DNA from: Chitinophagaceae bacterium | Lineage (GTDB): Bacteria; Bacteroidota; Bacteroidia; Chitinophagales; Chitinophagaceae | DNA length: 64,000 bases | Reading direction: 5' to 3' | Assembly: GCA_035549175.1 (NCBI GenBank) | Contig: DASZRL010000014.1 | Coordinates: 1,122 to 65,121, forward strand | In this document: positions 1 to 57,349 of the stretch, piece after piece | Numbering within the stretch: position 1 is the stretch's first letter | Layout of the letters: the number at the start of each line of letters is the position of its first letter | Translations under genes and position numbers: made by a program | The notes under the pieces: model-generated | The model's input: the letters and a program-made list of their open reading frames with translations, nothing else | The model's database searches: none | What the model was told of the DNA's origin: nothing

Positions 1-1738
1 GCGCCACCTGGCTGGCGTTGCAGGCGTCTGCGGCCAGTTTATCCAGGGTCTGGGTAAAAGCTGCATTCCCGCTGCGCAGCACCAGGACTGAACCCCGTTC
101 AAATTGCTGCCCTCCCGACTCGAAAGGCTCCTGGACAAACCGCAGGCGTACCCCTTCCTGCAGTAGTTGCCCGACAGCCCGGGCACTGCGCACGCCCTCC
201 CAACGGATCACATATCCATAGGCATCCCGGACTGGATTTGGCTGAAAAGCCGGACGCAGGCTGCCGGCTCCGGCTGCCACCCGGTCCCGCATGGCATAGG
301 CCGTGAGCCCATATACGTAGGGCAGTCCCCAGGCCGTAATGTCATAGGTAGCCGAATCCACCAGGTGGCTTCGGGGTTCAAACAGCACGCGCAGGAGCGT
401 GGACTTGGGCTGCAGGGCGCTGATGACCAGGTCCCCCGTGGCATAGCTGCACATTTCCTCCCTGCCGGACTGGTAGCTGTAGCCGCGGCCCGAACCCGGC
501 GCGCCCACGGTACCATACTGAATCCGGTTGCGGTCCAGCAGGTCCAGCAGGGCCTGGAAGCGCTGGGCGTCAGCAGGCGTATTTTTAATTATATACGTTT
601 TGTACTCCCCGCTGCCGTTGCTGACCGCATCGGTATAAAACTGGTGAAATTCCCGGACCAGGCGGGTGGCGTTCTGGGAAGCCGTTTCCAGGGTGCTCAG
701 CCCGGTCGTGTAATGGTGAAGGACCCGGTCTTCGAGGGTCAGGGTGTCCCCTTCTGCCTTCAGGGCACCCAGGCCGCCCGCACCTCCCCCACCCTGCTCA
801 AAGGTCATGCCGATGGCTCCGTTATAAAGCGGGTAGGTATCTCCGTAAGAGGGATAGAACAGGTCGAATTCCTCCTTGGTGAAGAACAGCCAGCCGTTGG
901 CATCGAAATAACGGGCGTTATTCCTGCCGATAAGGACCTGGAACGTCTTCTGCCAGGGAGTAATGACGTCGTGGTAGGGCTGGGCAGCGGGCGCAAAATA
1001 ATACGGAGCGTCGATCTCCTGTTCGTGGTAATCGACATGGACCTGGGGCAACCATTGATTATACAGTTGCAGGCGCTGGCGGCTTTCCGGCTGGGTCTGC
1101 CAGGCCCAGTCCCGGTTGAGGTCAAAGTTGTAATGGTTGGTGCGCCCGCCAGGCCAGGGCTGGTGATGTTCGCGGGCATCCAGGCGGGGATTATACCGGT
1201 TACCCACGATGGAATTGAACCAGTTGACGTAACGGTCACGTCCATCGGGGTTGATGCAGGGATCCAGGACTACCACCGTATTAGCCAGCCATCCGTGGAC
1301 GCGGGTGTTGGAAGGATCGACCAGGGCATATAGCATCAGCATGGCGGCTTCCGAGGAGGAGGTTTCATCCCCATGCACATTATAGCTTAGCCAGACAATG
1401 GCGGGTGCATCTTCCTCCCGGCCGGATACCCGGTCCCCGGACAGACCGGCCAGCCGCAGGTTGTTGAGGCGGATGGAATCCAGCCGGGCAATATGCTGCT
1501 CGGTCCCGACAAAGGCCACAATCAGGGGTCTCCCTTCCAGAGTTTGCCCGTATTGCTGCAACTTCACCGTGGCAGGGCTGGCCTGGGCCACATACTGAAA
1601 ATAACTCACGATCTTCCAGTGTGGTGTATACCGGGTACCGATCTTGTACCCAAGGAAAGCTTCGGGGGACAGAATCTGGGCATGCAGGTGGGAAAGGACC
1701 ACCAGCCAGCACGCGGTCAGCAGCAGGATTTTTCGCAT
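1..1738 (-). CDS. Secreted M14-family zinc carboxypeptidase; its 3' end runs off the left edge of the window
   Basis: Absent from the ORF track because it has no in-window stop. Manual reverse translation from the ATG at 1738-1736 gives MRKILLLTACWLVVLSHLHAQ (signal peptide), AIVWLSYNVHGDETSSSEAAM (HxxE zinc motif), HYNFDLNRDWAWQTQPESR and VHVDYHEQ. The frame stays open to base 1. The listed + ORF 167..1333 is its antisense shadow. Confidence 0.8.
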   Translation of the reverse strand, partial: MRKILLLTACWLVVLSHLHAQILSPEAFLGYKIGTRYTPHWKIVSYFQYVAQASPATVKLQQYGQTLEGRPLIVAFVGTEQHIARLDSIRLNNLRLAGLSGDRVSGREEDAPAIVWLSYNVHGDETSSSEAAMLMLYALVDPSNTRVHGWLANTVVVLDPCINPDGRDRYVNWFNSIVGNRYNPRLDAREHHQPWPGGRTNHYNFDLNRDWAWQTQPESRQRLQLYNQWLPQVHVDYHEQEIDAPYYFAPAAQPYHDVITPWQKTFQVLIGRNNARYFDANGWLFFTKEEFDLFYPSYGDTYPLYNGAIGMTFEQGGGGAGGLGALKAEGDTLTLEDRVLHHYTTGLSTLETASQNATRLVREFHQFYTDAVSNGSGEYKTYIIKNTPADAQRFQALLDLLDRNRIQYGTVGAPGSGRGYSYQSGREEMCSYATGDLVISALQPKSTLLRVLFEPRSHLVDSATYDITAWGLPYVYGLTAYAMRDRVAAGAGSLRPAFQPNPVRDAYGYVIRWEGVRSARAVGQLLQEGVRLRFVQEPFESGGQQFERGSVLVLRSGNAAFTQTLDKLAADACNASQVA

Positions 1739-18767: not shown

Positions 18768-19760
18768 TCAGACCACGCGATGAATCTTTTGCTCCAGCAG
18801 CATCAGGTCGGCCAGGACCATGGCCGTGACGGCCTCCAGGACCACCGGCACGCGCAGGGCGATGCACAGGTCATGACGCCCCTTTACGGAAACGGTCTCC
18901 ATGGCACCGGTCTCCCAGTTGAGGGTATGTTGCTCGCGCGGCGTAGAGGAGGTGGGCTTTACCGCAATACGGAACACCAGTTCATTGCCATTGCTGATTC
19001 CGCCGACCACGCCCCCGGCATGGTTGGTGACCGTGTGCCCCTGCATATCGGAAATCGGGTCGTTGTGCTGGCTGCCGAACATGCGCGCGGCGGCAAACCC
19101 GGTGCCGAACTCAATCCCCCGGACGGCGGGGATGGCAAAAACGGCATGGGCCAGCAAAGACTCCACTGAATCAAAGAAAGGTTCTCCCAGGCCGGCCGGA
19201 AGCCCCTGGGCCCGGCATTCCACGATACCCCCGATGGAGTCCTTGGCATCGATGGCCTTCTGCAATCCCTGGTCCAGGTCAGTCTCCCCGCCGATTTCCA
19301 GGATGGTACTGCGCACGCAGACGGGGTGAATCAGTTTTTTAGCCAGGGCGCCCGCCGCGACAAGGGCCACGGTCAGCCGGCCGCTGAAATGACCGGATCC
19401 GCGAAAGTCCTCAAAGCCCCCGAATTTCTGGCGGGCGACAAAGTCCGCATGCCCCGGACGGGGTACCGCCCGCTGCTTCTCGTAATCGCTGCTGCGGGTG
19501 TTTTTATTTTCAAACAGGATGACCAGCGGCGCCCCGGTAGTATGGCCGTTGTACACCCCGCTCTGGATAAAGGGATAGTCCTCCTCCTGCCGGGGCGTGG
19601 TGCCTTTGCGGGTGCCACCCTTGCGCCGCTCCAGGTCCTCCAGGAAATCCTCGGCCTTCAGCGGCAGACCCGCCGGGCAGCCGTCCACCAGGATACCAAC
19701 ACGCTCGCCATGGGATTCACCCAATATGTGCACGCGGAATAACCGTCCGAAACTATTCAT
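18768..19760 (-). CDS. aroC: Chorismate synthase
   Basis: 330 aa: MNSFGRLFRVHILGESHGERVGILVDGCPAGL... and ...GRHDLCIALRVPVVLEAV. Confidence 0.95.
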   Translation of the reverse strand: MNSFGRLFRVHILGESHGERVGILVDGCPAGLPLKAEDFLEDLERRKGGTRKGTTPRQEEDYPFIQSGVYNGHTTGAPLVILFENKNTRSSDYEKQRAVPRPGHADFVARQKFGGFEDFRGSGHFSGRLTVALVAAGALAKKLIHPVCVRSTILEIGGETDLDQGLQKAIDAKDSIGGIVECRAQGLPAGLGEPFFDSVESLLAHAVFAIPAVRGIEFGTGFAAARMFGSQHNDPISDMQGHTVTNHAGGVVGGISNGNELVFRIAVKPTSSTPREQHTLNWETGAMETVSVKGRHDLCIALRVPVVLEAVTAMVLADLMLLEQKIHRVV

Positions 19761-24111: not shown

Positions 24112-25282
24112 GCACTGTTTTTTGTTTAAGGCCGGCAAGCCGGATTCGTTCGATGCTTTCCTGGAACCGCTGCTGCGGGCTGCACAGACTGACCCGGATA
24201 TACCGGTTGCCGGCTTCCCCGAAAATGCCGCCCGGCGTGATGAATACGGCTGCCTCGCGCAACACCTCGTCGCTCAGTGCAAACCCGCTTTCATAGCCCG
24301 CGGGTATGCGGGCCCATACGAACATGCCGGCCTGGTCGGTGGCGTACCGGCAGCCCAGCAGATCCAGCAGCGCGAACACTTCCTGGCGTCGCGACCGGTA
24401 GGTGGCATTGACCTGGTCATACCAGTCGCGGTCCAGGCTGAGGGCCCGCGCGGCGGCCAGCTGCAGCGGAAGGAACATGCCGCTGTCCATATTGCTTTTA
24501 AACCGAAGGACTTCCTCGACCCGGCTGGCCGCCCCGCAGAGCATACCGACCCGCCAGCCGGCCATATTATGGGACTTGCTGAGCGAGTTGAGTTCCAGGG
24601 CGGTTTCCCGGGCGCCCGGGATGACAAGCAGACTCATCGGGGCGTCATTCAGGATAAAGCTGTAGGGGTTGTCGTGGCAGATGAGGATGCCGTGCCGGCG
24701 CCCGAATTCAACAAGGCGGGCCAGCAGGTCCCGGGTAGGCAGCTGCCCGGTGGGCATCTGGGGGTAATTCACCCACATCAGCCGGACACGGGTCAGGTCG
24801 GATTGTTCCAGGGCCCGGAAGTCCGGTTCATACCCGTTCTTTTCTTCGAGCACGTAGGGCACGCAGCGCCCTCCGGCAAGCTGTACGGCACTGCGGTAGG
24901 TCGGATAGCCGGGATCGGGAACCAGGGCCTCGTCGCCTTCGTTCAGGTAGGTCATGCACACATGCAGGATTCCTTCCTTGCTGCCGATGAGGGGCAGGAT
25001 TTCGCGGTCCGCATCCAGGCTGACCCCGTACCAGCGGTCATACCACTGGCTGATCGCCCGGCGCAGCACCGGCGATCCTTTATAGGACTGGTAGGCGTGC
25101 ACGTCAGGACGGGCACATTCCTGCTGCAGTACCCGGATCACGTCCGGATGCGGCGGAAGGTCCGGGCTGCCGATTCCCAGGTTGATGACGTTTTTTCCCT
25201 GGCGGTTGAGCTCGTCGATCTCCCGGAGTTTCTGGGAGAAATAATATTCGCCGATACCCTGTAGTCGTTTGGCTATTTCCAT
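24101..25282 (-). CDS. Class I/II PLP-dependent aminotransferase (likely aromatic/prephenate aminotransferase from operon context)
   Basis: 393 aa with an aminotransferase fold and the PLP-lysine region LNSLSKSHNMAGWRVG. Overlaps the pheA stop by 10 nt and the tyrA start by 11 nt. Confidence 0.85.
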   Translation of the reverse strand: MEIAKRLQGIGEYYFSQKLREIDELNRQGKNVINLGIGSPDLPPHPDVIRVLQQECARPDVHAYQSYKGSPVLRRAISQWYDRWYGVSLDADREILPLIGSKEGILHVCMTYLNEGDEALVPDPGYPTYRSAVQLAGGRCVPYVLEEKNGYEPDFRALEQSDLTRVRLMWVNYPQMPTGQLPTRDLLARLVEFGRRHGILICHDNPYSFILNDAPMSLLVIPGARETALELNSLSKSHNMAGWRVGMLCGAASRVEEVLRFKSNMDSGMFLPLQLAAARALSLDRDWYDQVNATYRSRRQEVFALLDLLGCRYATDQAGMFVWARIPAGYESGFALSDEVLREAAVFITPGGIFGEAGNRYIRVSLCSPQQRFQESIERIRLAGLKQKTVHVQ

Positions 25283-26103
25283 ATGCCTCGTTTATAGATT
25301 CCGTAAATTCTCAATGCCTCGGTGATGGGACGGATGGAACGGATCACTTCCTGGAACTGGTCCAGGCTGTCAAACTCCATGTCTGCGTGAAAACTGTATT
25401 TGAAATCGCTGCCCGGGATGGGAAAGCTCTGCAGTTTGCTGAGGTTGATGCCGCCTTCGGCAATCCGGGTCAGCACCCGCGCCAGGCTTCCCCGGGAATG
25501 ATCCGTATGGAAGTTGACGGACGCCTTGTTGGCCCCTTCGATCACCGGCGCCTCCTGTTCCCGCTGCAGGACCAGGAACCGGGTATAGTTGTTTTTCAGG
25601 GTATGGATATTGGGTGCCAGCACCTCCAGGCCGAACAGGTCCGCGGCCAGTTTGCTGGCAATGGCGGCCGCATGGCGGCTATGCCGCTGGTGAAGATGAC
25701 GCGCGCTGAGCGCCGTGTCCTCGGTTTCCACCAGCTTCCAGCTGTAGCGGTCCAGGAACTCCAGGCATTGCTGCAGGGCCATGGGATGGGAATGCACTTC
25801 GCGGATGTCCTCCAGCCGCACACCGGGATTTACCAGCAGGTTCTGGCGGATATGCAGGTAAACCTCGCCGGTAACGGTCAGGTTGCTTTTCTGCAGCAAA
25901 TTGTAATTGGGAAGGATGCTGCCGGCGATCGAATTCTCGATTGCCATCACCCCGCCGTCGCCCTGCGTGGGATCCTCCGCCAGGCGGACGACGTCACGGA
26001 AGGTGGCGCAGGGGATCACTTCCACTTCGTTGCCGAAATAGACCTGGGCGGCCACTTGGTGAAAGCTGCCTTCGTACCCCTGGATCGAAACGCGTGTTGT
26101 CAT
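25273..26103 (-). CDS. pheA: Prephenate dehydratase (PDT plus ACT domain)
   Basis: 276 aa: VSIQGYEGSFHQVAA, TRFLVL, and ACT region ESRP-like SLARVLTRIAEGGINLSKLQSFP. Confidence 0.92.
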   Translation of the reverse strand: MTTRVSIQGYEGSFHQVAAQVYFGNEVEVIPCATFRDVVRLAEDPTQGDGGVMAIENSIAGSILPNYNLLQKSNLTVTGEVYLHIRQNLLVNPGVRLEDIREVHSHPMALQQCLEFLDRYSWKLVETEDTALSARHLHQRHSRHAAAIASKLAADLFGLEVLAPNIHTLKNNYTRFLVLQREQEAPVIEGANKASVNFHTDHSRGSLARVLTRIAEGGINLSKLQSFPIPGSDFKYSFHADMEFDSLDQFQEVIRSIRPITEALRIYGIYKRGIWK

Positions 26104-26107
26104 AGTT

Positions 26108-26138
26108 AAAAAAAAGATCCCGGCTTTTGGCCGGGACC
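26108..26138 (-). terminator. Attenuator terminator immediately upstream of pheA
   Basis: The minus strand reads GUCCCGGC-CAAAA-GCCGGGAU followed by U8 (26115-26108). The U tract ends 4 nt before the pheA ATG at 26103. Confidence 0.75.
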
Positions 26139-26161
26139 CTTTATGTTGATTTTAGTTTCTG

Positions 26162-26251
26162 TCAGTTCGTATTCAACAAAAGCAATCCCGGCTTCCTGGT
26201 AAAAAAGAAGTAGTAAAAATAAAAGCCGAAATATGCCTTGCTGCTCGTCAT
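26162..26251 (-). CDS. Phe/Tyr-rich leader peptide of the aromatic amino-acid operon (29 codons)
   Basis: Translated by hand, too short for the ORF track: ATG ACG AGC AGC AAG GCA TAT TTC GGC TTT TAT TTT TAC TAC TTC TTT TTT ACC AGG AAG CCG GGA TTG CTT TTG TTG AAT ACG AAC TGA. This gives MTSSKAYFGFYFYYFFFTRKPGLLLLNTN. Confidence 0.7.
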   Translation of the reverse strand: MTSSKAYFGFYFYYFFFTRKPGLLLLNTN

Positions 26252-26258
26252 TACCTTA

Positions 26259-26290
26259 CAAATATAGCCCCGTAATCTTTATTGGACAAT
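26259..26290 (-). promoter_or_regulatory. Candidate Bacteroidota promoter for the leader and aro operon
   Basis: The minus strand carries ATTG (26290-26287), a 20-nt spacer, then TATATTTG (26266-26259, TAnnTTTG). The box ends 7 nt before the leader ATG, implying a very short or absent 5' UTR. Confidence 0.4.
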
Positions 26291-26297
26291 TATTCAT

Positions 26298-27953
26298 TTA
26301 CTTTTTTTTGGGATATCCCGCGGAGGCGTCATTCATCCGGATTTTACGGCCCCGGAAATTCTTGCCGTCGATGGCCCGGATCATTTTTCTGGCCGCCGCC
26401 GCTTCCACTTCGACCCAGCTGTTCATCTCCCGCATGTCGATGCGGCCCAGTACGTCCTTGCCGAGTTCACTCATATCCAGGATGAACTGCAGAAAGCTCG
26501 CCTTGTAAAAGCCATCCCGGGTGCCCAGGTTTACGAACAGCCGTTGATACTCGCCGCGGCTGCCGGCAGCCTGTCCCCGGGATTCGGTCCTGGACGGCCT
26601 GGTGCCCCGTTCGGTGCGGCGCTCCTCGCGCGGGTTCAGATCCGCTGCGTTCTCATAATATTTCAGGAAGCGGTCAAATTCCAGTGCCGCCACGCGCTGC
26701 AGGATTTCTTCCTTGTCCACCGCCGCGAAGCGCTCGCGCAGTACGGGCAGGTAGGTTTCATAGGCGCCGTGGCTGATGTCGGCCTGCTGCAGTTTGTCGA
26801 TGAAATGAAAAAATTGTTTGCGGCAAACGTCCTTGCCGCTGGGAATATCCAGTTTATGGAACCGCGTATTGACCAGTTTTTCGATCTGGCGCAGCCGGTA
26901 CTGTTCCCGCGGCGTGATCAGGGAAACGGATACGCCGCTGCGCCCGGCCCGGCCGGTCCGCCCGCTGCGGTGGGTATACACTTCGGTGTCGTCCGGCAGT
27001 TCATAATGGATGACGTGGGTGATCCCCTGTACGTCGATGCCCCGCGCGGCCACATCGGTGGCGATCAGCAGCTGCAGGTTCTTCTCCCGGAACCGGTTCA
27101 TCACCTTATCCCGCTGGGCCTGGGTCAGGTCCCCGTGAAGCGCCTCGATATCATACCCTTCCCGGATCAGGGATTCGGTGATCTCCTGGGCATCGGCCTT
27201 GGTGCGGGTAAACACAATGCCGTACAGCCCGGGGTTGAAGTCTATGATGCGTTTGAGGGTCTCATAGCGGCTGGCCGCGGCCGTCAGGTAGTACTGGTGG
27301 TCGATATTGGCGTTGGCGGCATTCACTTTCCCGATGGTCACCTCGGTGGGCTCCTGCATATAACGGCGGCTCACCTGCCGGATTTCGGGTGGCATGGTGG
27401 CACTGAACAGCCAGGTGCTGTCGCGCCGCGGCGTGTTCTGCAGGATGAACTCAATATCCTCCTGGAACCCCATGTTCAGCATTTCGTCGGCCTCATCCAG
27501 GACAACATACCGGATCTGATCCAGCTGGATAGCCTTCCGCTCGATCAGATCGATCAACCGGCCCGGTGTGGCCACCACGACCTGGCAGCCCTTGCGCAGG
27601 TCGCGGATCTGCTGGCTGATGGAGGCGCCTCCGTAGACCGCGGTCACCTGGAAACCGGATCCCCGGGGTTTAAACCGGTTCAGGTCGGTGGTGATCTGTA
27701 CACAGAGCTCCCGGGTCGGGCAGATAATCAGGGCCTGGGGCAGCCGCTGGGCCGGATCGGCCAGCTGCAGCAGTGGCAGTCCGAAGGCGGCCGTCTTGCC
27801 GGTGCCGGTCTGGGCGAGCCCGATAAAGTCCCTGGTTCCCCGGAGCAGCACCGGAATCGCCTGCTGCTGGATGGGGGTTGGAGTGGTAAAACCAAGATTT
27901 TCAACGGAATGCAAAAGGCCCTGGTTCAGGCCGAGGGATTCAAAGGTGGTCAC
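26298..27953 (-). CDS. DEAD-box ATP-dependent RNA helicase with C-terminal DbpA-type RNA-binding domain
   Basis: 551 aa with a Q-motif (GFTTPTPIQQQAIP), AQTGTGKT, VLDEADEM, SAT, HRSGRTGRAG and a C-terminal RRM-like tail. Confidence 0.93.
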   Translation of the reverse strand: MTTFESLGLNQGLLHSVENLGFTTPTPIQQQAIPVLLRGTRDFIGLAQTGTGKTAAFGLPLLQLADPAQRLPQALIICPTRELCVQITTDLNRFKPRGSGFQVTAVYGGASISQQIRDLRKGCQVVVATPGRLIDLIERKAIQLDQIRYVVLDEADEMLNMGFQEDIEFILQNTPRRDSTWLFSATMPPEIRQVSRRYMQEPTEVTIGKVNAANANIDHQYYLTAAASRYETLKRIIDFNPGLYGIVFTRTKADAQEITESLIREGYDIEALHGDLTQAQRDKVMNRFREKNLQLLIATDVAARGIDVQGITHVIHYELPDDTEVYTHRSGRTGRAGRSGVSVSLITPREQYRLRQIEKLVNTRFHKLDIPSGKDVCRKQFFHFIDKLQQADISHGAYETYLPVLRERFAAVDKEEILQRVAALEFDRFLKYYENAADLNPREERRTERGTRPSRTESRGQAAGSRGEYQRLFVNLGTRDGFYKASFLQFILDMSELGKDVLGRIDMREMNSWVEVEAAAARKMIRAIDGKNFRGRKIRMNDASAGYPKKK

Positions 27954-33692: not shown

Positions 33693-34754
33693 ATGAAGGA
33701 AATGAAGGATCCCCGGGACCCGGCCCTGCCGGACAGCAGCGATGAACTCTATGAGCGGTTCAGTTTTACCGTCGACCGGGGCCAGGAGCCGCTGCGGATC
33801 GACAAGTTCCTGATGAACCGGATCGAAGGGGCCACGCGTAACAAGCTGCAGCAGGCCATCAACGCCGGCCTGGTACTGGTCCATGGCAAGGAAGTGCGAC
33901 CCAATTACAAGGTCCGCCCCCTGGATGAAATCCTGGTCTATTCCGACATGAATCCCGAAGAGACCGACGTGCTGCCGGAACCGATTCCCCTTAACATCGT
34001 CCATGAAGACGCCGACCTGCTGGTGATCAACAAGCCGGCAGGCCTGGTGGTCCATCCCGGCAGCGGCAATTATACCGGCACGCTGCTGAACGGGGTGGCC
34101 TGGTACCTGCAGCAGCAGCATCCCGGCCTTACGGAGGCCAACCTGCCCCGCTTCGGGCTGGTCCACCGCATCGACAAAAACACCAGCGGACTGCTGGTCC
34201 TTGCCAAGACAGACCGCGCCATGCGCCTGCTGGCCAAACAGTTTTATGACCATACCGTACGGCGCCAGTATATTGCCCTGGTATGGGGAGAACTGCAGGA
34301 TGACAGCGGCACCATCCGGGCCCACGTCGGACGCAACCTGCGGCACCGTAAGCTTTTTGAAGCCTACCCGGAAGGCGACCACGGGAAGGAGGCCATTACG
34401 CATTACCGGGTCCTGGAGCGCTTCGGATACGTGACCCTGGTAGCCTGTGAGCTGGAGACGGGGCGCACCCACCAGATCCGGGTCCATATGAAATACCTGG
34501 GACACCCCTTGTTCAACGACGATTTTTACGGGGGAGACCGGATTGTAAAGGGGACGGTCTATGCCAGGTATAAGCAGTTCGTGGAAAACTGTTTTGCCCT
34601 CTGCCCGCGACAAGCGCTACACGCCCGCACCCTGGGCTTTGTCCATCCCACCACCGGCCAGGAGATCTTTTTCGAGTCCCCCCTGCCTGCGGATATGGAA
34701 GCCGTGATCACCAAATGGCGGGAATACGCCCGCAACCGGGGGGCTGCCCGGTAA
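33693..34754 (+). CDS. rluD: RluA-family 23S rRNA pseudouridine synthase (RluD-like) with S4 domain
   Basis: ATG at 33693 (MKEMKDPR...). S4-like LRIDKFL and catalytic HRIDKNTSGLLVLAK. Confidence 0.9.
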   Translation: MKEMKDPRDPALPDSSDELYERFSFTVDRGQEPLRIDKFLMNRIEGATRNKLQQAINAGLVLVHGKEVRPNYKVRPLDEILVYSDMNPEETDVLPEPIPLNIVHEDADLLVINKPAGLVVHPGSGNYTGTLLNGVAWYLQQQHPGLTEANLPRFGLVHRIDKNTSGLLVLAKTDRAMRLLAKQFYDHTVRRQYIALVWGELQDDSGTIRAHVGRNLRHRKLFEAYPEGDHGKEAITHYRVLERFGYVTLVACELETGRTHQIRVHMKYLGHPLFNDDFYGGDRIVKGTVYARYKQFVENCFALCPRQALHARTLGFVHPTTGQEIFFESPLPADMEAVITKWREYARNRGAAR

Positions 34755-54675: not shown

Positions 54676-54750
<75 letters not shown>

Positions 54751-57194: not shown

Positions 57195-57290
57195 GAAGTG
57201 TTCCCGGGGTGTTCCGGACAGGCGTCCGGATCTGAGATTATACCCGTTGAACCTGATCAGGGTAATGCCTGCGCAGGAAGGTGACCAGCC
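57195..57290 (+). promoter_or_regulatory. TPP (THI-box) riboswitch aptamer
   Basis: GGGGTGTTCCGGACAGGCGTCCGGATCTGAGATTATACCCGTTGAACCTGATCAGGGTAATGCCTGCGCAGGAAGG contains the conserved GGGGUG, CUGAGA, ACCC, GAACCUGAUC..GG.UAAU.CC.GCG.AGG elements in the correct order. The P1 boundaries are approximate. Confidence 0.85.
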
Positions 57291-57349
57291 TTTTATGTCT
57301 CCCCTGTTTATTGCATTCCCTCTCATTTTTAACCATTTAAAACTGAAAA

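Follow-up and report, generated by a model that had tools for sequence, protein, structure and literature searches.

We analyzed a 64,000-nt stretch of DNA from a Chitinophagaceae bacterium (GenBank assembly GCA_035549175.1, contig DASZRL010000014.1, positions 1,122 to 65,121), hereafter called the window, and report here on the spacer upstream of its pheA gene. According to NCBIfam matches, pheA heads a minus-strand operon in which it is followed by genes for an aminotransferase, prephenate dehydrogenase (tyrA), 3-deoxy-D-arabino-heptulosonate 7-phosphate (DAHP) synthase/chorismate mutase, aroB and aroA, and which reaches position 19753. A 100% identical protein from a Chitinophagaceae bacterium metagenome-assembled genome carries the name prephenate dehydratase. 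On the other side of the spacer a DEAD-box helicase gene ends at 26298. Direct reading of the minus strand between 25950 and 26450 gave a spacer of 194 nt (26297–26104). A preliminary description of this DNA, made from the sequence, had proposed that the spacer contains a ribosome-mediated attenuator responding to phenylalanine (Phe) and tyrosine (Tyr). The coordinates of its elements, as established in the present analysis, are collected in Table 1.

The spacer contains a short leader open reading frame (ORF) in which codons 7–17 specify 6 Phe and 4 Tyr residues; tryptophan (Trp) is absent from the peptide. These residues match the products of the operon, which codes for pheA, tyrA and shikimate-pathway enzymes. 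An intrinsic terminator lies downstream of the ORF. Its core consists of GUCCCGGC (26137–26130), a CAAAA loop (26129–26125), GCCGGGAU (26124–26117), a single C and a U8 tract (26115–26108), and the full stem comprises 13 bp within 26142–26112. Four nucleotides, AACU, separate the U8 tract from the pheA ATG at 26103. The 3′ arm of the terminator is duplicated verbatim, as the 10-mer AAGCCGGGAU occurs both in the hairpin (26126–26117) and within codons 20–23 of the leader ORF (26194–26185). These are the only two copies in the 64-kb window, where 0.26 matches are expected by chance, and at least two copies anywhere in the window were obtained in 4 of 100 shuffles. The segments UGUUG (26178–26174) and CAACA (26148–26144), as well as UUCGGCUU in codons 8–10 (26230–26223), were found where the preliminary description had placed them, and the same applies to its spacer, its 29-codon ORF with the run of 10 Phe and Tyr codons, and the duplicated terminator arm. 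The single coordinate that had to be corrected is the start of the terminator, which is 26137 and not 26138; its U8 tract and its distance of 4 nt from the pheA ATG are as described.

Folding of the 161-nt leader yielded a minimum free energy (MFE) structure of −44.1 kcal/mol (z = −3.41) consisting of a long helix between regions 1 and 2 (helix 1:2) and the terminator formed by regions 3 and 4 (helix 3:4). An alternative helix between regions 2 and 3 (helix 2:3) is the antiterminator. When folded in isolation, helix 1:2 (26243–26173) had an energy of −22.2 kcal/mol (z = −4.66), helix 2:3 (26194–26130) −21.5 kcal/mol (z = −4.78) and helix 3:4 (26142–26108) −20.4 kcal/mol (z = −3.99). The three helices are mutually exclusive and near-isoenergetic. 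The earlier proposal of an antiterminator that competes with the terminator thus agrees with the folding energies, and it agrees as well with the compensatory changes described below. Helix 1:2 was also present in the MFE structure and included UUCGGCUU, but with 22 pairs it is considerably longer than the 8 bp proposed in the preliminary description. These pairs join codons 3–10 (26243–26221) with all of region 2 (26196–26174), and the loop of the helix contains most of the Phe/Tyr run.

Scanning genomes with PheA gave 80 Chitinophagaceae loci (72–80% identical), two of which were truncated too near pheA to be assessed. In each of the other 78, which had sufficient upstream DNA, pheA was preceded by the Phe/Tyr-rich short ORF and the competing helices, and the element always took this position. 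Carriers of the element include the cultured Pseudoflavitalea rhizosphaerae KACC 18655 (L051), Ilyomonas limi (L028), Paraflavitalea sp. CAU 1676 (L069) and Danxiaibacter flavus (L078). The upstream neighbour genes vary among these loci while the element is the constant companion of pheA, and in several loci the preceding gene has its own terminator ahead of the leader promoter. We conclude from these two observations that the hairpin is not simply the terminator of the upstream gene.

An alignment (A1) of 79 elements, including that of the window, was produced with MAFFT. RNAalifold returned the terminator alone from this alignment because the competing helices cancel each other, and covariation was therefore tested on the named structures. 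In the antiterminator 90.7% of the alignment cells were paired, compared to 33–53% when the partner strand was slid. Seven of its pairs had changed on both sides, and its covariation score was reached by none of 500 shuffles. The terminator gave comparable results, with 90.5% of the alignment cells paired and 8 pairs showing double changes. Regions 2, 3 and 4 vary together, examples being the replacement of GCCGGG/CCCGGC by CGGGGG/CCCCCG, and AGCGGGA/UCCCGCU. Across the loci the mean energies were −20.0 kcal/mol for the antiterminator and −19.8 kcal/mol for the terminator; the terminator was part of the MFE structure of 77 of the 79 elements, and helix 1:2 was present in 74 of the 79 full-length folds. 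The copy of the terminator 3′ arm begins at codons 19–22 in 72 of the 79 elements, with a median length of 7 nt as compared to 4–5 nt for control arms.

The 5′ end of the pheA coding sequence differs among these loci. In about half of them (L008, L009, L011, L013–L015, L023, L025, L037, L040, L073 and others) the conserved PheA core starts 22–200 nt past the terminator and is preceded by an in-frame N-terminal extension of 24–37 amino acids. In several of the loci with an extended PheA, a GC-rich palindrome (CCTCCCCAAACCCCTCC..GGAGGGGC) directly follows the terminator.

Several features of the alignment bear on whether the ORF is read as codons. All 79 elements contain an ATG-started, in-frame ORF with 8–12 Phe or Tyr codons, and the combined number of these codons is 741 in frame as opposed to 260 and 193 in the two remaining frames. 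Between the ATG and region 2 the distance is 1 modulo 3 in 65 of the 79 elements; the untranslated stretch that separates region 2 from region 3 is spread over the three classes as 32/24/23. Codons 8–9 vary in the amino acids that they specify (FG, RW, FW, RY or GF). In one subgroup (L044, L047, L048, L064, L066, L067, L076 and L077) region 2 is shorter by 1 nt and the frame is shifted. In these loci the UGA within the conserved UGUUGA serves as the stop codon, and the peptides end in ...GCFC or ...GSFC. The conserved ATG and frame, together with insertions and deletions that mostly comprise whole codons, indirectly suggest that the leader ORF may be translated.

The search for PheA homologues gave close Chitinophagaceae only, and distant lineages were reached by way of 50%-identity representatives. 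For 8 PheA representatives that are 46–65% identical to the window protein, 9 loci were obtained, 8 of them distinct (L082 duplicates L081); these loci were characterised by PheA identity alone. An aromatic-rich short ORF followed by a terminator was present in 6 of the 8 distinct loci (Table 1). The helices of L085 and L086 are entirely different in sequence (GGGAGGC and CCGGAAGCGGCU), and a copy of the terminator 3′ arm is still found near the end of the ORF.

The influence of ribosome position was simulated by masking a footprint from −12 to +14 relative to the first P-site base and folding the nascent transcript as it stands before region 4 has been made. Such a shorter RNA adopts the antiterminator fold. 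Placing the A site on any of codons 2–17 allowed the antiterminator to form, and 12–13 of its 13 pairs to the terminator 5′ arm were retained for every position up to codon 17. The antiterminator decayed as the A site moved over codons 18–21 and was unable to form at any later position up to the stop; codon 17 is the last one for Phe. In this model a ribosome that stalls on the Phe and Tyr codons leaves the antiterminator free to form, and one that has reached the stop codon does not. The same dependence on ribosome position was obtained for the five distant loci that were simulated (L081, L083, L085, L086 and L088) and for the pheA leader of Flavobacterium psychrophilum.

A sequence resembling the −7 box of Bacteroidota sigma-A promoters precedes the leader ORF. 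The preliminary description had noted such a box ending 7 nt before the leader ATG of the window, and TAnnTT[TC]G was found 4–12 nt before the leader ATG in 75 of the 79 elements, most often at 7 nt (31 elements, the window among them) or 4 nt (24 elements). When these 75 loci were aligned on the −7 box alone, a TTTG-like −33 element appeared, with T at −35 (89%) and −34 (92%), T or G at −33 and G or T at −32, as did an A-rich stretch farther upstream. As the −33 element emerges independently of the alignment anchor, the −7 box is likely to be part of a real promoter. In F. psychrophilum the −7 consensus spans −12 to −5 (PMC9723704), and with this geometry the first transcribed nucleotide of the 4-nt class would be the A of its AUG, and in the 7-nt class the start would lie 3 nt farther upstream. 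The two spacing classes differ by the length of one codon, and the peptide length up to the Phe/Tyr run is equal in both. The leaderless or near-leaderless leader peptide of the preliminary description is a reasonable expectation from promoter geometry and not a demonstrated fact. We see about an even chance that the Chitinophagaceae leader peptide is translated from a leaderless or 3-nt-leader transcript. If it is, the element would represent conserved and physiologically readable 5′-end-dependent initiation in a phylum without Shine–Dalgarno sites, with ribosome loading coupled to the first transcribed nucleotides. A confirmed leader of 0–3 nt would also be a natural reporter for leaderless or Shine–Dalgarno-independent initiation in Bacteroidota.

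Conservation, compensatory changes and the footprint simulation all support the interpretation offered in the preliminary description, and we consider it highly likely that the element is a transcription attenuator of the ribosome-mediated type, with charged tRNA-Phe and tRNA-Tyr as its signals. Transcription would begin at the sigma-A promoter just before the leader AUG, giving a 5′ untranslated region (UTR) of about 3 nt in the window and 0 nt in many relatives, and a ribosome would read the 29-codon leader while RNA polymerase moves on. When Phe or Tyr is scarce, the ribosome would stall within codons 7–17 and cover or separate region 1, leaving region 2 free to pair with region 3 once the latter has been made. 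The resulting antiterminator would occupy the terminator 5′ arm, and polymerase would continue into the pheA–aminotransferase–tyrA–DAHP synthase/chorismate mutase–aroB–aroA operon. When both Phe and Tyr are plentiful, the ribosome would pass region 2 and reach the UGA. Region 2 would then be blocked, regions 3 and 4 would form the terminator, and transcription would end at the U8 tract, 4 nt before pheA. If no ribosome were present, region 1 would pair with region 2 and the terminator would form as well. The leader switch probably raises expression of the operon when Phe or Tyr is scarce.

The preliminary description knew of neither a curated RNA family nor experimental work covering such an element. 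The first part of this statement holds, in that neither the spacer nor 20 related loci gave an Rfam match at the gathering threshold; below it, Phe_leader matched the spacer best (E ≤ 10). However, an attenuator upstream of F. psychrophilum pheA, with a Phe/Tyr-rich leader peptide and a mapped transcription start, has been published (PMC9723704; ISME Commun, 2021, Table S7 and SI D9). According to its authors, other Flavobacteriaceae have conserved the element, which is missing from Rfam, and they report read-through of the leader in particular conditions and operon expression that peaks in minimal media (PMC9723704). By analogy with the read-through and the minimal-media peak, starvation for Phe or Tyr may relieve premature termination at the Chitinophagaceae element. 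The F. psychrophilum leader belongs to the same phylum, precedes the same first gene and contains a Phe/Tyr-rich short ORF (MNTNNTFYSNNSFYFYWNIGRDCYMVI), the end of which carries a copy of the terminator 3′ arm (GGGAUUG...). It has the same layout, with energies of −17.6 kcal/mol for the antiterminator and −13.7 kcal/mol for the terminator, and it matched the profile of the 79 elements over its full length (nhmmer, 31 kb searched, E = 1.9e-7 with a large correction for composition bias). It differs in having a measured 20-nt 5′ UTR, as opposed to the 0–3 nt predicted for Chitinophagaceae, as well as one Trp codon and AU-rich helices, and its description is confined to supplementary material that includes neither a covariation analysis nor a curated family. 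The mechanism is classical, and an element of this type was already on record for pheA within the phylum.

Several points weigh against this interpretation. We infer the start of transcription, the stalling of the ribosome, actual termination and the response to Phe and Tyr. The simulation used an assumed footprint and equilibrium folding, not kinetics. Leaderless mRNAs make up only 5.5% in F. psychrophilum (PMC9723704), and 5′ UTRs that short account for 3.7% in Bacteroides thetaiotaomicron. One distant locus, L084, lacks the element (Table 1). Lastly, column-wise covariation of helix 1:2 was weak (71–74% paired, compared to 46–68% with a slid partner), both for the 8 bp of the preliminary description and for the 22-bp form, and some of the 1:2 pairing is compositional because U-rich Phe and Tyr codons pair readily with the G/A-rich region 2. 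As the column-wise covariation was weak, a per-sequence codon-shuffle test was applied to the segment from the ATG to region 2. In this test the native segment was more stable than its counterparts with shuffled leader codons, giving a mean z of −3.2, with 65 of 75 loci at or below the 5% level. The clade differences in codons 8–9 (FG, RW, RY and GF) may reflect different registers of 1:2 pairing.

The hairpin could instead, or in addition, act mainly on translation of pheA, with helix 3:4 occluding the initiation region and helix 2:3 leaving it single-stranded. Because the hairpin and U tract within 26104–26142 end 4 nt before the AUG, the choice between 3:4 and 2:3 on read-through transcripts could also open or close pheA initiation. 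The pheA ATG lies 5–16 nt after the stem in the window and in 37 of the 78 loci, and one report (PMC6847099) describes initiation in this phylum as dependent on unstructured A/U-rich upstream sequence and not on a Shine–Dalgarno site. In the other half of the loci, however, the first candidate pheA start (the farthest in-frame ATG) is situated 22–198 nt past the stem, and the element is unchanged. Moreover, the 13-bp GC-rich stem with its U8 tract has the canonical form of an intrinsic terminator, and for F. psychrophilum the 5′ region of pheA is on record as a transcript segment of its own with a separate expression profile (PMC9723704). We regard a role mainly in translation as unlikely.

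A related question is what sets the switch. Alternative terminator and antiterminator helices also typify attenuators controlled by proteins or by tRNA, and the RNA of regions 2–4 is better conserved than the C-terminus of the peptide, as might be expected if a trans-acting factor such as an RNA-binding protein, an uncharged tRNA acting as in a T-box, or a small RNA operated the switch and the ORF were incidental. Against this possibility, no T-box match was found in the spacer even at E ≤ 10, and no other Rfam family reached its threshold there; likewise, the 7 Bacteroidetes/Chlorobi genomes of a 2008 survey yielded no T-box (PMC2494555). All 79 elements keep the ATG, the frame and the in-frame run of 8–12 Phe and Tyr codons, with length changes of whole codons, and aromatic-rich ORFs recur in distant lineages in which the RNA sequences are unrelated. 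In addition, the encoded amino acids are exactly the products of the operon. Control by a trans-acting factor is quite improbable.

It is scarcely credible that the ORF encodes a functional small hydrophobic peptide and that the hairpin is merely its terminator or that of the helicase gene: the peptide is very hydrophobic and the helicase gene has no terminator of its own before the leader, but codons 8–9 and the C-terminus of the peptide are variable, the shifted variants keep the RNA while ending ...GCFC*, which disfavours a functional small protein, the element accompanies pheA regardless of the upstream gene, several loci have a separate upstream-gene terminator before the leader promoter, and a plain terminator could do without a repeated 3′ arm and without a co-varying antiterminator.

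Enterobacterial pheL is 15 codons long, contains Phe codons only, and has a Shine–Dalgarno site and a normal 5′ UTR, while Escherichia coli tyrA is regulated separately by TyrR. In Chitinophagaceae, unlike in pheL–pheA, a single operon for the synthesis of both amino acids would be under the control of Phe and Tyr codons alike. The enterobacterial leader resembles the element described here in its run of Phe codons, its 1:2, 2:3 and 3:4 helices and a terminator just before pheA. The Phe_leader model (RF01859) gave the spacer a score of 20.2 bits (E = 0.81), which is below the gathering threshold of 55 and thus does not make it a member of that family; the sub-threshold match was driven by the terminator and the U-rich codons.

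Within the phylum, the Bacteroid-trp leader (RF01692) has been described as a cis-regulatory RNA from Bacteroidetes (Weinberg et al. 2010, PMC2864571) and was treated as a Trp leader-peptide RNA upstream of trpE in the F. psychrophilum study (PMC9723704), and it shows that this type of attenuation is already accepted in the phylum. It concerns another operon and another amino acid, and the RF01692 model had no match at E ≤ 10 in the spacer and none at the gathering level in the window or in the 20 related loci. The abstract of the attenuator survey of Vitreschak et al. from 2004 reportedly mentions Bacteroidetes/Chlorobi. Among other short upstream ORFs, those with notable Phe and Tyr content at shikimate genes (Stav et al. 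2019, PMC6429828, Fig. 6b) are similar by description; they stem from other bacterial genomes and are labelled candidate regulatory upstream ORFs. A report on mycobacteria (bioRxiv 10.1101/834739) describes leaderless polycysteine short ORFs that attenuate operons; they start right at the transcript 5′ end or beside it, and their codon runs match the controlled pathway. These concern another phylum and another amino acid, and their leaderless state was measured, whereas it is predicted here.

To the known F. psychrophilum element the present analysis adds evidence from covariation and from the reading frame, a broader range of lineages and a predicted leader of 0–3 nt. A probable regulatory mechanism can now be given for the main aromatic amino-acid operon of a large and mostly uncultured family from soil and water. 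The covarying alignment of 79 sequences, together with the Flavobacterium element and the distant variants, could seed a new Rfam family. The understanding of how attenuation works is unchanged by this finding, which is a good example and not a new principle.

Table 1. Features of the pheA leader region of the window and of the distant pheA loci. Positions are those of the window except in the rows of the distant loci.
Feature	Position	Strand	Basis or remark
pheA (prephenate dehydratase), first gene of operon	25273–26103	−	NCBIfam matches
Intrinsic terminator: 13-bp stem, CAAAA loop, U8 tract	26108–26142	−	Folding, alignment
Region 3, UCAACAUAAAGGGUCCCGGC, antiterminator 3′ arm = terminator 5′ arm	26130–26149	−	Folding and alignment
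Leader ORF, 29 codons plus UGA, peptide MTSSKAYFGFYFYYFFFTRKPGLLLLNTN	26162–26251	−	ATG at 26251, stop UGA 26164–26162; minus-strand reading and ORF listing
Region 2, pairs with region 1 or region 3; holds AAGCCGGGAU (26194–26185)	26173–26196	−	Folding and duplicate search
Regulatory codons 7–17 (Y F G F Y F Y Y F F F)	26201–26233	−	Sequence reading and ribosome-footprint simulation
Region 1, 5′ arm of 1:2 anti-antiterminator, CAGCAAGGCAUAUUUCGGCUUUU	26221–26243	−	In leader MFE structure; isolated helix energy; codon-shuffle test
Predicted transcription start, fifth nucleotide after the box, 3-nt 5′ UTR (GUA)	26254	−	Predicted from F. psychrophilum geometry
Putative −7 box TATATTTG (Bacteroidota sigma-A consensus TAnnTTTG)	26259–26266	−	Sequence reading; ends 7 nt before ATG
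−33 element TTGT, at −35 to −32 of the predicted start	26286–26289	−	Conserved when 75 loci were aligned on the −7 box alone
L081, leader ORF MKSSNISYWSFEWFFQT
L083, Chitinophagaceae-like leader
L084 (PheA 50% identical)	1383–1500		No aromatic short ORF and no terminator upstream
L085, leader ORF MKKINTYYSFSFFFFYLIRINGRP
L086, leader ORF MSYLCTFFYSFYYFGFFGIPEAAACGVKIR
L087, leader ORF MLRPGYFFGFYYRYAQP			Terminator identified by eye, missed by the scan
L088, leader ORF MRLNNSFYFFSFYFYGQP
L089 (PheA 46% identical)	1300–1500		Phe-rich short ORFs, no clear terminator

A profile search found no second copy of the element in the 64-kb window. A scan of the window for codon runs followed by a terminator gave, besides the leader, one weak candidate only (MVPLSSCSSPHTRAIYWRRTVWS, 34315–34244 on the minus strand, with a terminator-like hairpin at 34198–34182); it has no convincing codon run and is probably a chance occurrence. 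The window also contains a thiamine pyrophosphate (TPP) riboswitch (57195–57296, plus strand, 66.9 bits) and a tRNA gene (54679–54750, minus strand), which are its only Rfam matches at the gathering level.

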